This document shows positions 27,001-33,000 of a stretch of DNA of 47,880 nucleotides, piece after piece. Origin of the DNA: a virus (taxonomy: Duplodnaviria > Heunggongvirae > Uroviricota > Caudoviricetes); the IMG/VR virus record IMGVR_UViG_2880412407_000003, positions 1 to 47,880 of that record, one strand, 5' to 3'. Numbering within the stretch: position 1 is the stretch's first letter; each line of letters begins with the position of its first letter. Position numbers: made by a program.

Positions 27001-30000
27001 ACGGGGTTTTATGTTTATGGCAGTAAGCTATGGGAGGCTGCCTTGATTGATTTTAGCAAACTGATTAGGGAGTTGCGACTCATGATTAGTCAATTACCAA
27101 ACTGGAAATTTTTGCTGGTCTGGAGCATCCCTTTTTTATGGGTAGTATCCCAGTGAATTGTGGCAATTAAGGGGTAGCTATGTCAGACAAACTCATAATG
27201 CTGGCGAAGATCCTCTGTGTAATCGTCGGCATTTCATTTTCACTAATGCTGGTTGCTCTTTTTCTTTCCATGGGCTGGATGATGTTGTCTTCGTCGGGGC
27301 TGCTGGGGTGAGCATAAACCGAATGCTTTCCGCGTTTACCGTTATTCTGCTGGTGGTCTGTGGTGCGCTTAGTCTGGGGCTGAATCATTACCGCGATAAC
27401 GCCATCACCTACAAAGCGCAGCGCGATAAAAAAGCCAGTGAGCTGGATCTGGCAAACGCAACCATTACTGATATGCAGGTGCGCCAGCGCGATGTTGCTG
27501 CGCTCGATGCAAAATACTCGAGGGAATTAGCCGATGCGAGAGCTGAAAATGAAACTCTGCGTGCTGATGTTGCCGCTGGTCGTAAGCGCCTGCGGATCAA
27601 CGCCACCTGCCCCGGTACCGTGCGTGAAGCCACCGGCACCTCCGGCGTGGGCAATGATGCCGCCGTCGAACTCTCTCCGGTTGCTGGACGAAACGTTCTC
27701 GGTATCAGAGACGGAATCATCAGCGACCAGGCAGCATTGAGAATGCTTCAGGAATATATCCGCACTCAGTGTATTAACTAGTATTTTTGTTATTCGGAGA
27801 ATGCATGAAGAAATTATTGGTAACCGTAAAGCCTTTTCAGGGAACAATTCCGTTCCGTATTTTGCAGCGTGGTCGTGTTCTTGTTGAAGGTTCGTTCAGT
27901 GGTAAATGTACGCAATTACACTCCCGGACCTTTCAGGTGAATGCCACGAATGAAGAGCTAACCGTTGAGTGTACGATGAATGCCGCTAAATGCCGCATGG
28001 TATCCGCTGCATTACAGCCAGTGTGTTGAGCGACCTTATTATTCATGCGCGGTATTGTCGCCGTATTCCTGCATTAACAGAGACCGCAGCCCGACCGGGA
28101 GAATGAGGTGTACTGGCAATAGCGGACACTACCATTTGTTCTTTTTTTAAGCAGCCATCTGATGATATTTTTCCCTGAAGGCTGCCGGGGAGATATTCCC
28201 CAGACGAGAGTGACGACGCTGACGATTGTAGAAAATCTCAATGTATTCCCGTATTACTGAGATGGCTTCATCCCGGTTATTGAAACGATAGTGGCTCAGG
28301 CTCTCATTTTTCAGCGTTCCCCAGAAGCTTTCCATCGGAGCGTTGTCGTAACAGTTACCTTTACGCGACATTGATGTTTTCAGACCAAACTGCTCCTGTA
28401 TGACCCGGTAATCGTATGCGCAGTACTGTGAACCTCGATCAGAGTGGTGGATTAGCCCGGCAGGTGGGCGCTGGCTCCTGAGCGCCATAAACAGAGCTTT
28501 ACCTGTCAGCTCTTTTGTCATGCGCTCTCCCATGGCGTAGCCGACAATTTCGCACGTATAAACATCTTTGATGCCAGCGAGGTACAACCATCCCTCCTGT
28601 GTGGCAACATACGTCAGGTCCGCCACCCAGACCTGATTTGGTGCTGTAGGAGCGAACGTCTGGTTCAGCAGATTTGGCGCAACTGGCAGATTGTGGTTCG
28701 AGTTCGTAGTCGCTCTGAACTTGCGTTTCTGCTTACAGCGTAGCCTTAGCTCCTTACGAAGACGTGCCAGTCGGTCACGACCAACGATGATGCCATTCTC
28801 TGCCAGCTCCGTCTGGAGCCGCCGGGTTCCATATGTTTCGCGAGTGCGGATATGTGCCACCTTAATCTCCAGTTTTAGCCGCTCATCACTTTGTTTTCTG
28901 TCTGAGGGTTCATGCTGTACCCAGTTGTAATAACCGCTCCTGGATACACCAAATACCTGACACATCGCTTCAATGGGAAATTGTTGTCGCCATTGTTCGA
29001 TTAACGCGTATTTTTCAGCGACTCCTGTGCAAAATACGCTGTTGCTTTTTTTAATATATCTCGCTCAAGGCGAGCTTCATTTAACGCCTTACGCAGTTGC
29101 AGAATTTCAGATTCCAGTTCAGCCACCGTGCGGGAACCAGGAGTACCGAGCCCTTTTCTGGCGGCGGTAACCCATTGTCCTAAAGTGCCTTCAGGAAGAG
29201 ATAATCGGGAAGCGCCTTCACTGATCGAAAGTTGATTTTCAAGAACCGTTCTGACAGCTTCGGCTTTGAACTCTTTAGAGTAACGTTGGGTTTTTCTGCT
29301 CATTATTAGCTCCTTCTGATGCCATTCTATTTCAGGAAGGAGTGTCCGTTAAACTCAGGCTACCTCAGAATCCTCTGCGCGAGTGTGCGGGGATAATCAA
29401 AAACGATACACACCGGGGTTTACCGCGTTAACGGAGCGCGGCGTTGTCCCCTCATGGTCGCTGGTCCGGTGCGATGGTGGAAGAAGCCGGATGTTTATCA
29501 CTATTAATTGATAACACAGAAATGGATTCATTGATTTTCAGCACGTTTTTGTATTCGTATTATTGAACATCTGTTTATTTTACTTTTAACATATTGATAA
29601 TAAAAAGAGCTGTAAATCTTTAGATGAGTCGATTTTGTCCGGGGAAGTTCAAATGGATTTTATGCTGACGGTTTCTGGTGTGGTTATCCTGTCCATTGCT
29701 TATACTGCAGATAAATATGGCTGCCATTTGTTATCACGTATTGGCGCTTATTGCTCGTTGATGCTGATTTTCTCGTCGCTTTTTTTTGAGTAAGTTATAT
29801 TAATTATAACAAATAATTTTCTGTGTTTTTTCAGGCTATCCCGTCAGACGGGAAGCCTGTACTGCCGGGGGACGAATGGAAAACTGATGTGTCCGGTAAC
29901 TGTGTGTTCTGTGAACACCATGTTACTTAATTATGTAATTCATACCCGAACGCTCTGTTGACAGCCTTCTTCTGCAGGCTTCAATAACCCACGCTGAAAA

Positions 30001-33000
30001 GTTACCGGAACCTTTATGTTCAAGGGCGATATTGATCTGTGAGGTAGCCTGAGTTTAACGGACACTCCTTCCTGAAATAGAATGGCATCAGAAGGAGCTA
30101 ATAATGAGCAGAAAAACCCAACGTTACTCTAAAGAGTTCAAAGCCGAAGCTGTCAGAACGGTTCTTGAAAATCAACTTTCGATCAGTGAAGGCGCTTCCC
30201 GATTATCTCTTCCTGAAGGCACTTTAGGACAATGGGTTACCGCCGCCAGAAAAGGGCTCGGTACTCCTGGTTCCCGCACGGTGGCTGAACTGGAATCTGA
30301 AATTCTGCAACTGCGTAAGGCGTTAAATGAAGCTCGCCTTGAGCGAGATATATTAAAAAAAGCAACAGCGTATTTTGCACAGGAGTCGCTGAAAAATACG
30401 CGTTAATCGAACAATGGCGACAACAATTTCCCATTGAAGTGAGGTAGCCTGAGTTTAACGGACACTCCTTCCTGAAATAGAATGGCATCAGAAGGAGCTA
30501 ATAATGAGCAGAAAAACCCAACGTTACTCTAAAGAGTTCAAAGCCGAAGCTGTCAGAACGGTTCTTGAAAATCAACTTTCGATCAGTGAAGGCGCTTCCC
30601 GATTATCTCTTCCTGAAGGCACTTTAGGACAATGGGTTACCGCCGCCAGAAAAGGGCTCGGTACTCCTGGTTCCCGCACGGTGGCTGAACTGGAATCTGA
30701 AATTCTGCAACTGCGTAAGGCGTTAAATGAAGCTCGCCTTGAGCGAGATATATTAAAAAAAGCAACAGCGTATTTTGCACAGGAGTCGCTGAAAAATACG
30801 CGTTAATCGAACAATGGCGACAACAATTTCCCATTGAAGCGATGTGTCAGGTATTTGGTGTATCCAGGAGCGGTTATTACAACTGGGTACAGCATGAACC
30901 CTCAGACAGAAAACAAAGTGATGAGCGGCTAAAACTGGAGATTAAGGTGGCACATATCCGCACTCGCGAAACATATGGAACCCGGCGGCTCCAGACGGAG
31001 CTGGCAGAGAATGGCATCATCGTTGGTCGTGACCGACTGGCACGTCTTCGTAAGGAGCTAAGGCTACGCTGTAAGCAGAAACGCAAGTTCAGAGCGACTA
31101 CGAACTCGAACCACAATCTGCCAGTTGCGCCAAATCTGCTGAACCAGACGTTCGCTCCTACAGCACCAAATCAGGTCTGGGTGGCGGACCTGACGTATGT
31201 TGCCACACAGGAGGGATGGTTGTACCTCGCTGGCATCAAAGATGTTTATACGTGCGAAATTGTCGGCTACGCCATGGGAGAGCGCATGACAAAAGAGCTG
31301 ACAGGTAAAGCTCTGTTTATGGCGCTCAGGAGCCAGCGCCCACCTGCCGGGCTAATCCACCACTCTGATCGAGGTTCACAGTACTGCGCATACGATTACC
31401 GGGTCATACAGGAGCAGTTTGGTCTGAAAACATCAATGTCGCGTAAAGGTAACTGTTACGACAACGCTCCGATGGAAAGCTTCTGGGGAACGCTGAAAAA
31501 TGAGAGCCTGAGCCACTATCGTTTCAATAACCGGGATGAAGCCATCTCAGTAATACGGGAATACATTGAGATTTTCTACAATCGTCAGCGTCGTCACTCT
31601 CGTCTGGGGAATATCTCCCCGGCAGCCTTCAGGGAAAAATATCATCAGATGGCTGCTTAAAAAAAGAACAAATGGTAGTGTCCGCTATTGCCAGTACACC
31701 TCAGTAAGCCATATCCCTGCTCCGCGTGACGGTCGTGATTATGATCCGGATGTACTGCAGCAGGCGGTGAATGATGCGGTTGCGAATATTCCGGTACCGG
31801 CGGACGGCAAAAGTATCACCCCCGATGATGTGCGTCCGATGCTTGAGCAGATGGTGAAAGAGGCCGTAAGCCATATCCCTGCTCCGCGTGATGGTCGTGA
31901 TTACGATCCGGAAGTACTGAAGCAGGCGGTTCTGGAGGCGGTGAATGCCCTTCCGGCTCCGCAGGACGGGCGTGATGCCACGGCACTGGAAGTGCTCCCC
32001 GCTATTGACGATCAAAAATCCTTTCCCCGGGGCACGTATGCCACACACCTGGGTGGACTCTGGCGGGCGTATGAAAAAACGCACGGGATGCGGGGATGGG
32101 AATGCCTGGTTGACGGGGTGGCGGATATCGACGTCAGCATGACGGATGAGCGGTTGTTCTCTGTGGTGATCCGGCAGAGCAGTGGCCGGTGTACGGAAAA
32201 AACATTTTCCCTGCCGGTGATGCTCTACCGCGGTGTGTTCAGAGCCGGTGAAACCTACCACCCCGGCGATACGGTGACGTGGGGGGGCTCGCTGTGGCAC
32301 TGCAACAGTATGACCGGTGATAAACCCGGAGAAGCTCATTCATCAGGCTGGACCCTGGCTGCAAAACGTGGACGGGATGCAGGAGGCGGAAAATGACGGC
32401 ATTACTGACACTGGAAGAGATCAAGGCACATCTGCGTGTTGACCATGACGCGGATGATGACATGCTGATGGACAAGGTTCGTCAGGCTACCGCCGTGCTG
32501 CTGGCCTACATTCAGGGCAGCCGGGATAAGGTGATTCGTGAGGACGGTGAGCTGATCCCGGGCGAGGCATTAACCCGGATGAAGGGGGCTGCCATGCGAC
32601 TGACCGGGATGCTGTACCGGAATCCGGATCTTGCTGAGCGGGAAGACCTCGTGCAGGGGGAACTGCCGTTTTCTGTGTCCGTGCTGATTTACGATTTGCG
32701 TTGTCCGACGGTGTTATGAGGAGGGAGGAATGGCAATATCTGCAGGTCGTCTGACACAGATGATAAGTGTTCTGAACCCGGTGTTAACCCGTAATGCTGC
32801 CGGAGAAATGACGGAAGAATGGGTGTCATGCGGGAAAATTCATGCGGATATCCGTGGCAGGAGCAGCCGGGAGCGGATGCAGTCTGGTGCGGAAATGGCG
32901 CAGGCGGAAATCCGCATCTGGGTGCGCGGTCAGTCCGGCCGGGAAATCACGGCAGCGTCACGACTTCATGTGCTGAGTGGTCCATGGCGTGACCGGATCC

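Follow-up and report, generated by a model that had tools for sequence, protein, structure and literature searches.

The window, a 47,880-nucleotide stretch of DNA that we analyzed over its whole length, is a defective lambdoid prophage of STEC E. coli O121:H19. Its packaging and head module has almost certainly been lost through a real deletion bounded by IS600. Measured against the related prophage L004, the deleted interval is 7,090 bp (L004 14866-21955), less than the 8 to 10 kb suggested by a first-pass annotation of the same DNA. That annotation had proposed alignment to intact relatives, and the prophages L002, L003, and L004 did define the interval: the left breakpoint, at window position 30039, aligns with L002 7262 and L004 14865, and the right one, at 31704, with L002 15620, L004 21956, and L003 11145.

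A lambdoid prophage without its packaging/head module

The prophage sits in the chromosome with potC on one side and tRNA-Ser/hya on the other. In gene order and sequence it resembles the pool of defective lambdoid prophages of EHEC (the Sakai Sp prophages; Stx1 phages such as Stx1_499), in which the common order is Q, tRNAs, a nanS-p-like esterase, the lysis genes, HNH-terS-terL-protease/capsid-portal, the connector, and a lambda-like tail. From the breakpoint rightward, the window and Stx1_499 are 99.8% identical. The window prophage also carries a type III effector gene, in keeping with this pool. It differs from the pool in that stx is absent, the packaging/head module is deleted, and extra IS elements are present, namely, one IS66-family element and two IS629-like copies.

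L002, L003, and L004 keep an HK97-type module of HNH, terS, terL, a protease-capsid fusion, portal, and a gp6-like connector, with Pfam matches to HNH, Peptidase_S78 plus Phage_capsid, Phage_portal, and Phage_connect_1. Missing from the window are the 5' part of ylcI (DUF3950), the HNH endonuclease gene, terS, terL, the protease-capsid fusion, a 73-aa ORF, portal, and codons 1-123 of a portal-extension ORF that follows and overlaps the portal gene. The first-pass annotation had found no terminase, portal, protease, or capsid genes, and two approaches agreed with it: a tblastn search (E ≤ 1e-3) detected no homolog of the HNH, terS, terL, protease-capsid, 73-aa ORF, or portal products anywhere in the 47.9-kb window, and the PGAP annotation for strain 2014C-3599, where the region is identical, likewise includes none of these genes. 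The head-completion genes for the connector, a head closure protein, and an HK97-gp10-like protein are still present. With no terminase, capsid, or portal, and with the usual cos/HNH region gone, the prophage cannot package its own DNA, which leaves a helper phage or vertical descent as its only means of spread.

Ahead of the IS cluster, which runs from 28104 onwards, the last intact gene is that of an Rz-like spanin (annotated "lysis protein"; 27323..27781, plus strand; PGAP on the identical sequence L001 20324-20782; phrog_13, E 1.4e-71), and the next ORF, a 74-aa hypothetical phage ORF (27805..28029, plus strand; PGAP WP_000735655.1; phrog_2571, unknown function), is also intact. The first intact gene past the deletion encodes the gp6-like head-tail connector (32393..32719, plus strand; Pfam Phage_connect_1, E 7.8e-08; 100% to the Stx1_499 homolog). 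Between it and the deletion lies the remainder of the portal-extension ORF (31704..32396, plus strand), which had rightly been described as lacking its 5' end. Its 3' 230 codons remain (residues ~124-353), and they match an ORF of 353 codons in the Stx1 phage Stx1_499 over its residues 123-353, at 98.7% (tblastn, residues 123-354). PGAP calls this remnant "phage portal protein, missing N-terminus," and it corresponds to the C-terminal part of phrog_2271/phrog_1289 "portal protein," with no Phage_portal Pfam domain in the part retained. Within this remnant lie 162-bp repeats, at 31704 and 31866.

A 670-bp AT-rich fragment had been noted inside the cluster. The fragment is indeed there (29368..30039, 672 bp, GC 0.415), and it proved to be native phage DNA whose normal place is between Rz and terS: it is collinear with L002 6590-7263 at 99.85% identity and with L004 14216-14866 at 100%. 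A foreign origin of this low-GC segment is ruled out by its collinearity and >99.8% identity with intact relatives. It holds a 46-aa ORF (29653-29793, plus strand) and, at its right end, the 3' 117 nt of ylcI (29923-30039, minus strand); the 5' 69 nt of this gene, which has a DUF3950 Pfam match when intact, are lost.

Three identical IS600 segments mark the locus

A repeat search of the window returned 28104-29367 and 30440-31703 as inverted repeats of 1264 nt that are 100% complementary. These are two complete copies of IS600, designated A (28104..29367, minus strand) and C (30440..31703, plus strand). A third, partial copy, B (30040..30439, plus strand), consists of IS nt 1-400, and the copies are identical base for base over their shared parts. 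All three had been recognized in the first-pass annotation, which placed the complete copy C directly at the end of a 400-bp partial copy, as we find.

The element is 1264 bp long with TG...CA ends and imperfect inverted repeats, as expected of the IS3 family. The left inverted repeat begins TGAGGTAGCCTGAG... and the right one (reverse complement) TGAGGTGTACTGGC...; the two agree in their first 6 nt, and additional matches lie near GCGGACAC. OrfA matches HTH_Tnp_1 (E 1.5e-20) and OrfB matches rve (DDE; E 3.2e-26) and HTH_21. An A7G motif for -1 frameshifting at IS nt 316 joins OrfA and OrfB, and PGAP names copy A [quoted passage not shown] Copy B retains the left inverted repeat, an intact orfA (30104-30406; HTH_Tnp_1, E 1.5e-20), and the A7G slippery site. 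IS600 is abundant in Shigella and STEC O121:H19, with 27 copies in O121:H19 strain 51104 (PMC9397093), and the element in the window does not itself differ from it. What is unusual is the arrangement, in which a 400-bp left-end remnant abuts a full copy and the full copy has no duplication.

Simple IS600 insertions are flanked by a 3-bp duplication, seen as GAA/GAA at copy A, TCC/TCC in L002, and GGG/GGG in L004. The GAA of copy A (28101..28103 on the left, 29368-29370 on the right) is a true target duplication, since the unoccupied site in L002, CGGGAGAATCCTC, has one GAA; a single GAA is also present in L005 and L008. The O121 strains 2014C-3655 and 2014C-4423 do not have copy A. Copy C (termini TGAGGT...ACCTCA) has no such duplication: its left flank is AAG and its right flank GTA, the mark of a rearranged copy. 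The last base of B is joined directly to the first base of C (CCCATTGAAG/TGAGGTAGCC), the left junction of B falls within ylcI at L002 7262/7263, and the right border lies at the exact terminal base of the IS (CACCTCA/GTAAGCC, 31703/31704). The outer flanks of B and C are not contiguous in the ancestor, where they lie 7,090 bp apart (L004 14865 versus 21956).

The region is a frequent target of IS600. L004 has an independent insertion 21 bp from the copy A site, with the GGG duplication; 97-3250, FORC_028, and others have one about 146 bp from the copy B site; and L002 has one in the portal-extension ORF, with the TCC duplication. The last of these, the copy in the portal region of UTAK-12-like strains, was considered as the missing recombination partner and rejected: it lies 355 bp upstream, at another site, and has its own TCC duplication.

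Other O121 genomes carry the same junctions and derived states

Eight independent complete O121 genomes have the same left junction as the window, and six have the same right junction. This bears on the possibility that the structure is an assembly artifact of repeated IS copies, or that the head genes were only moved by an IS-mediated inversion. Three identical IS600 segments do lie within 3.6 kb, the window differs from a sister genome at single bases in homopolymers (typical of long-read error), and two strains, 16-9255 and GTVSS-020, have an inversion of the A-to-C segment through recombination between these two IS600 copies. However, the junctions recur in independently assembled genomes, and the derived states of sister strains build logically on the structure in the window. 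Recombination keeps each pairing of flank and IS end, so that a relocated module predicts specific junctions, and these pairings are absent from every O121 genome searched. We therefore regard an artifact or a mere relocation as extremely improbable.

Among 5,426 complete E. coli genomes, none contained the expected reciprocal, intermediate, or nested junctions. Those sought were the right IS end followed by CTG and the rest of ylcI, the upstream ORF followed by GTA and the left IS end, and the right IS end followed by AAG and B nt 401 onwards. The reciprocal and intermediate queries gave no single-piece matches; their two-piece matches were nearby IS600 insertions or closely spaced IS600 pairs. 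With the B/C junction as the query against all complete E. coli genomes, both halves match inside any ordinary IS600 copy. The absence of the lost DNA rests on these junction searches together with the homolog search of the window.

Two sister strains have lost further DNA. In 2015C-3107, a second deletion of 2,232 bp (31704-33935) begins at the identical terminus of C. In 2014C-3655 (L005), copy C and 5 bp are gone across a 3-bp AAG microhomology, and the sequence reads CCCATTGAAG/CCATATCCC, which is the window sequence with C, GT, and one AAG removed. We also considered 2014C-3655 as the ancestral state, with B[1-400] joined to the ORF and C arriving later, and rejected it: C would have had to bring an extra GT that restored the native GTAAGCC. 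The same strain has a nearby deletion of roughly 320 bp at a 6-bp microhomology.

How the deletion may have arisen

We give an even chance to a route of two steps, in which an extra IS600 copy was acquired and RecA-dependent recombination followed. In the most probable order of events, copy B would first have inserted into ylcI at the target CTG, and copy C would then have inserted into B at IS nt 398-400 (AAG). Everything to the right of C, that is, the rest of B and 7,090 bp of phage DNA, would next have been lost in an event anchored at the right terminus of C. For this, the portal-extension ORF would have received a further IS600 in the same orientation, at the target GTA. RecA-dependent recombination of this new copy with C would then have left a single hybrid copy with AAG and GTA as its flanks. 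Copy A would have inserted separately, with its normal GAA duplication. We infer the order of these events and the enzymology of the third.

The inversion between A and C, the frequent insertion of IS600 into the region, and the roughly 27 IS600 copies of O121:H19 count in favor of an extra copy followed by recombination. For IS150, of the IS3 family, recombination between two copies is a documented route to adjacent deletions (PMC4173774). In the rbs operon deletions of the E. coli long-term evolution experiment, IS150 is kept and deletions of variable length recur from one exact end into dispensable genes (PMC4173774); the two deletions from the right end of C (7,090 bp, and 2,232 bp in 2015C-3107) are alike in this respect. 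The IS150 route was demonstrated experimentally, whereas for IS600 here we infer it, and the genes lost are those of prophage morphogenesis. Among the complete E. coli genomes, none had an extra IS600 at the 31704 site and none had a complete nested B-C-B arrangement, so the intermediates are hypothetical; the signature of a hybrid copy is unreadable because A, B, and C are identical. This route costs three insertions and one recombination, and direct deletion by transposase costs two insertions and one event. Two deletions at the same terminus are equally compatible with an active IS end.

A direct intramolecular event catalyzed by transposase, in which the right end of C, nested in B, would have attacked the portal-extension ORF, with loss of the intervening DNA and retention of C, is possible but rather unlikely. 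It needs the fewest events, both junctions are exact IS termini without a duplication, the second deletion in 2015C-3107 begins at the identical C terminus, and the intermediates of the longer route were found nowhere in the complete genomes searched. However, transposition in the IS3 family proceeds by copy-out-paste-in via a circle and is expected to yield simple insertions rather than adjacent deletions. Moreover, the IEE-linked deletions described in PMC9943667 go with loss of the IS, whereas C is retained. Judged by sequence, transposase catalysis and host recombination between two copies would give identical end products, and a direct event would be indistinguishable from insertion plus recombination. 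The first-pass annotation had proposed intramolecular transposition with an adjacent deletion, citing the partial copy and the missing duplication around C. The IS-linked deletion of morphogenesis genes is real, with IS600 termini on both borders, and the second deletion in 2015C-3107 fits its extension from the right end of C; intramolecular transposition is not established, since insertion plus homologous recombination gives the identical product.

The polarity could also be reversed. In that case "C" would first have inserted into the portal-extension ORF with a GTA duplication, a complete B would have stood in ylcI, and the left end of the downstream copy would have attacked B nt 400, with loss of the remainder of B, of 7.09 kb of phage DNA, and of the GTA on the left. 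This produces the identical flanks, AAG and GTA around the IS, from two insertions and one event, and IS600 does enter the portal-extension ORF in other lineages (L002). Yet the deletion in 2015C-3107 extends from the right end of C and not the left, which shows that the right end is the dynamic one at this locus, and the complete genomes searched yielded no IS600 at the 31704 site as an intermediate. We consider this order of events improbable.

IEE and deletions that retain the IS

O121:H19 L1 strains carry an SpLE1-like element with iee (PMC9397093, PMC8767318). IEE excises IS600 from lacZ in O121:H19 (PMC9397093) and has microhomology-mediated end-joining activity (PMC9943667). The main text of the O121:H19 population genomics study does not mention IS600 or the prophage defect (PMC8767318). 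IEE-dependent excision and flanking deletion of IS3-family elements in STEC involve the same lineage and the same IS. The loss of C in 2014C-3655, a whole-IS loss with its joint at a short microhomology, and the nearby deletion of roughly 320 bp in that strain resemble them. The window does not, because the IS at the deletion border is still present, and IEE-type excision is therefore no explanation for the 7.09-kb deletion. O121:H19 offers a series at one IS600 terminus: the 7.09-kb deletion, then the 2.23-kb deletion (2015C-3107), then the microhomology loss of the copy (2014C-3655).

We entertain, tentatively and as an unlikely reading, that the IS600 transposase, perhaps together with IEE, makes the two IS-retaining deletions directly and not by recombination with transient extra copies. 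If so, the locus would be natural-population evidence that a copy-out-paste-in IS3-family element makes one-ended adjacent deletions, and IEE-positive STEC would erode their own prophages in this way.

The deletion is a real but ordinary case of IS-driven prophage decay and brings no new principle; IS-driven decay of EHEC lambdoid prophages and deletions adjoining IS3-family elements are already well documented. The locus is a compact record of IS600 activity in O121:H19, comprising insertion, nesting of IS within IS, end-anchored deletion, excision, and inversion, and its junctions could be used as lineage markers.

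Missing packaging and capsid genes

The prophage is lambdoid, without stx, and runs from an integrase beside potC to a tail-fibre/effector region beside tRNA-Ser/hyaA. Window positions 27000 to 33500 are 100% identical to the chromosomes of the E. coli O121:H19 strains 2014C-3599 and 2002-3211, and other complete O121 genomes carry the stretch too. We read the ancestral gene order from three relatives that keep the head and packaging module, UTAK-12 (L002), the Stx1 phage Stx1_499 (L003), and 2011C_4247 (L004). After Rz, their genes encode a 74-aa ORF, a 46-aa ORF, ylcI/DUF3950 (minus strand), an HNH endonuclease, terS, terL, a 645-aa prohead protease-major capsid fusion (Peptidase_S78 and Phage_capsid), a 73-aa ORF, the portal (Phage_portal, 454 aa), a 353-codon ORF overlapping the portal stop codon and commonly annotated as part of the portal, and a gp6-like connector.

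The window is collinear with these relatives from 29368 to 30039, as far as the interior of ylcI (L002 7262, L004 14865); this segment, which the first-pass annotation set apart as an AT-rich fragment, belongs to the normal phage sequence. The right breakpoint, window 31704, corresponds to L002 15620, L004 21956, and L003 11145, at codon 124 of the 353-codon ORF, and to the right of it Stx1_499 is 99.8% identical to the prophage. The missing interval is L004 14866 to 21955, or 7,090 bp (6,928 bp in an alternative register, given the 162-bp repeats in the 353-codon ORF), so the loss amounts to about 7.1 kb rather than the 8 to 10 kb first estimated. A tblastn search with the HNH, TerS, TerL, protease-capsid, 73-aa, and portal proteins of Stx1_499 found no match anywhere in the window. 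The packaging, capsid, and portal genes are thus gone, as had been claimed of the head module as a whole; the head-completion genes are still there.

The portal-extension ORF contains tandem 162-bp (54-codon) repeats (window 31704 to 31942; L002 15296 to 15800), of which two remain in the window, three are found in Stx1_499, and four each in UTAK-12 and 2011C_4247. Its C terminus gives a weak, subthreshold CBM_5_12 match.

IS600 copies at the breakpoints

Repeat finding and direct reading bore out the anatomy already described, with copy A inverted and duplicated at its target, copy B partial, and copy C without a duplication. Copy A (28104 to 29367, minus strand) is 1264 bp long and identical in sequence to copy C (30440 to 31703, plus strand). 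Copy B (30040 to 30439) comprises the 400 bases directly before C and matches nucleotides 1 to 400 of the element exactly. The element is IS600, of the IS3 family, with all the hallmarks present: TG...CA termini with imperfect inverted repeats, an OrfA with HTH_Tnp_1, an OrfB with rve and HTH_21 domains, an A7G slippery site, and the NCBI PGAP label [quoted passage not shown]

GAA lies on either side of copy A, and the unoccupied site in UTAK-12 has one GAA only (CGGGAGAATCCTC), so copy A is a simple insertion. At the B/C joint (CCCATTGAAG followed by TGAGGTAGCC), the first base of C comes directly after the last base of B. GTAAGCC lies directly 3′ of C; since the flanks are AAG on the left and GTA on the right, C has no target duplication. 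Remnant B keeps a full orfA (30104 to 30406, HTH_Tnp_1) and the slippery site, without orfB, and from its sequence would be a stand-alone copy of a gene for a small DNA-binding protein. Proteins of the OrfA type modulate transposition in other IS3-family elements.

The deletion is neither an artefact nor a relocation

The ylcI′/B junction occurs in 8 complete O121 genomes that were assembled independently, and 6 of the 8 also have the C/truncated-ORF junction, which speaks against misassembly of IS copies. Had the head module moved elsewhere, recognizable junctions would be expected, because homologous recombination between IS copies keeps each pairing of flank and IS end. Three such junctions were therefore made into synthetic queries and run against 5,426 complete E. 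coli genomes: the right IS end, CTG, and the rest of ylcI; the upstream ORF, GTA, and the left IS end; and the right IS end, AAG, and IS nucleotide 398 onwards. None gave a true junction in these genomes.

The finding is real, the first-pass reading was largely right, and the phenomenon is ordinary. IS600, IS-anchored deletions, and defective EHEC lambdoid prophages are well-known classes, and the partial genes are already flagged in the public (PGAP) annotation. We found no published description of this particular locus, and the main text of the O121:H19 population-genomics paper (PMC8767318) does not mention IS600.

Variation among O121 strains

Strain 2014C-4423 lacks A and retains B, C, and the truncated ORF, showing that the deletion structure is independent of A. 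In 16-9255 and GTVSS-020, which are flour associated, the 1,072-bp segment bracketed by A and C, which are inverted relative to each other, lies in the opposite orientation (window 28104 to 31703; 2648 to 6159 of the 16-9255 locus). Both orientations thus occur among O121 genomes, and the flip directly documents homologous recombination between the two IS600 elements.

Strain 2015C-3107 has A, the fragment, B, and C as in the window, and its C end (..CACCTCA) is joined to window 33936, within the major tail subunit gene. An extra 2,232 bp (31704 to 33935) has been deleted from the same C terminus, with the IS kept.

Strain 2014C-3655 lacks both A (empty GAA site) and C, and its sequence, CCCATTGAAG followed by CCATATCCC, equals the window with C, GT, and one AAG removed. 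These bases point to excision of C across a 3-bp microhomology. We considered this strain as the ancestral state, for which C would have to bring a GT that recreates the native GTAAGCC; 2014C-3655 is therefore derived. IEE is documented in O121:H19, where it excises IS600 from lacZ (PMC9397093), and has microhomology end-joining activity (PMC9943667). IEE would account well for the 2014C-3655 state; it does not account for the main deletion, since the IS is retained there. Strain 2014C-3655 also has a second deletion of about 320 bp in the truncated ORF, about 170 bp downstream (L005 9390 to 9600, window 31700 to 32210), joined at a 6-bp CCCTGC microhomology.

Origin of the deletion

The B/C joint places an exact left IS terminus within another copy, and the right joint an exact right IS terminus within a phage gene; both joints bear the mark of the transposase having acted at some point. 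In the simplest histories, B would first have been in ylcI and C would then have inserted into it at nucleotides 398 to 400. We favor, at roughly an even chance, a further IS600 entering the portal-extension ORF in the same orientation and recombining with C, leaving AAG-C-GTA. Recombination between IS600 copies is seen directly at this locus in the 16-9255 and GTVSS-020 inversion. Independent IS600 insertions also lie nearby in other lineages: 21 bp from the A site in 2011C_4247 (duplication GGG); in 97-3250, FORC_028, and others, about 146 bp from the B site; and within the portal-extension ORF in UTAK-12 (duplication TCC). The region is therefore a frequent IS600 target or one where insertions are well tolerated. 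Insertion of a new copy followed by recombination is, moreover, the demonstrated route for recurrent deletions adjacent to IS150, another IS3-family element (PMC4173774).

The first-pass annotation had proposed instead intramolecular transposition with an adjacent deletion; here the right end of C would have attacked the portal-extension ORF directly, again giving AAG-C-GTA. This less favored alternative requires fewer events and is consistent with deletions recurring at one terminus of C, as in 2015C-3107. To our knowledge, adjacent deletions are not a normal product of IS3-family copy-out-paste-in transposition. In a mirror event, a copy already in the portal-extension ORF would have attacked B by its left end, also yielding AAG-C-GTA. 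Copies A, B, and C do not differ in sequence, and no intermediate was found in the databases searched, so sequence alone does not separate insertion plus recombination from these two direct attacks. There is a modest probability that the locus represents a natural series of one-sided, IS-retaining deletions driven by transposase or IEE, which, if true, would be of modest import.

Other features of the prophage

The prophage is flanked by potD-potC on the integrase side (window 1 to 1663) and by tRNA-Ser/hyaABC on the tail side (right end; L006 and the 2014C-3599 locus, L001). These loci lie about 150 kb apart in K-12, which suggests that the element is chimeric, the remnant of a chromosomal inversion that involved two prophages. 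The site of the stx genes in Stx phages (window 19100 to 22400), 3′ of Q and a DNA methyltransferase gene, has no stx gene and carries three tRNA genes (Ile, Arg, Arg) together with a TerB-family pseudogene and a gene for a 616-aa SASA/NanS-p-type esterase.

Compared with 2014C-3599, the window lacks a single base at four positions within G or A homopolymers (40636, 40875, 40999, and 43921), so that tail genes K, for a C40 peptidase, and J are each broken into two ORFs. These gaps look like long-read homopolymer errors, not real frameshifts, although the 2014C-3599 annotation also gives K as frameshifted.

Between the holin and endolysin genes, two 1310-bp IS3-family elements of IS629/IS1203-like type sit on the minus strand (23043 to 24352 and 24484 to 25793), separated by 131 bp. 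They are annotated with the AL1L pseudoknot frameshift signal and share only 94% identity. The second is present in 2015C-3107 and absent from 2014C-3599, 2014C-3655, and 2014C-4423, so the window strain is none of these three. A complete IS66-family element (tnpA, tnpB, and tnpC; window ~9900 to 12700, minus strand; L001 4381 to 6918) breaks an early-region prophage ORF. The 3′-5′ exonuclease (recE-like) gene is whole in the window (1963 to 4434) and is split by an extra IS600 in 2014C-3599.
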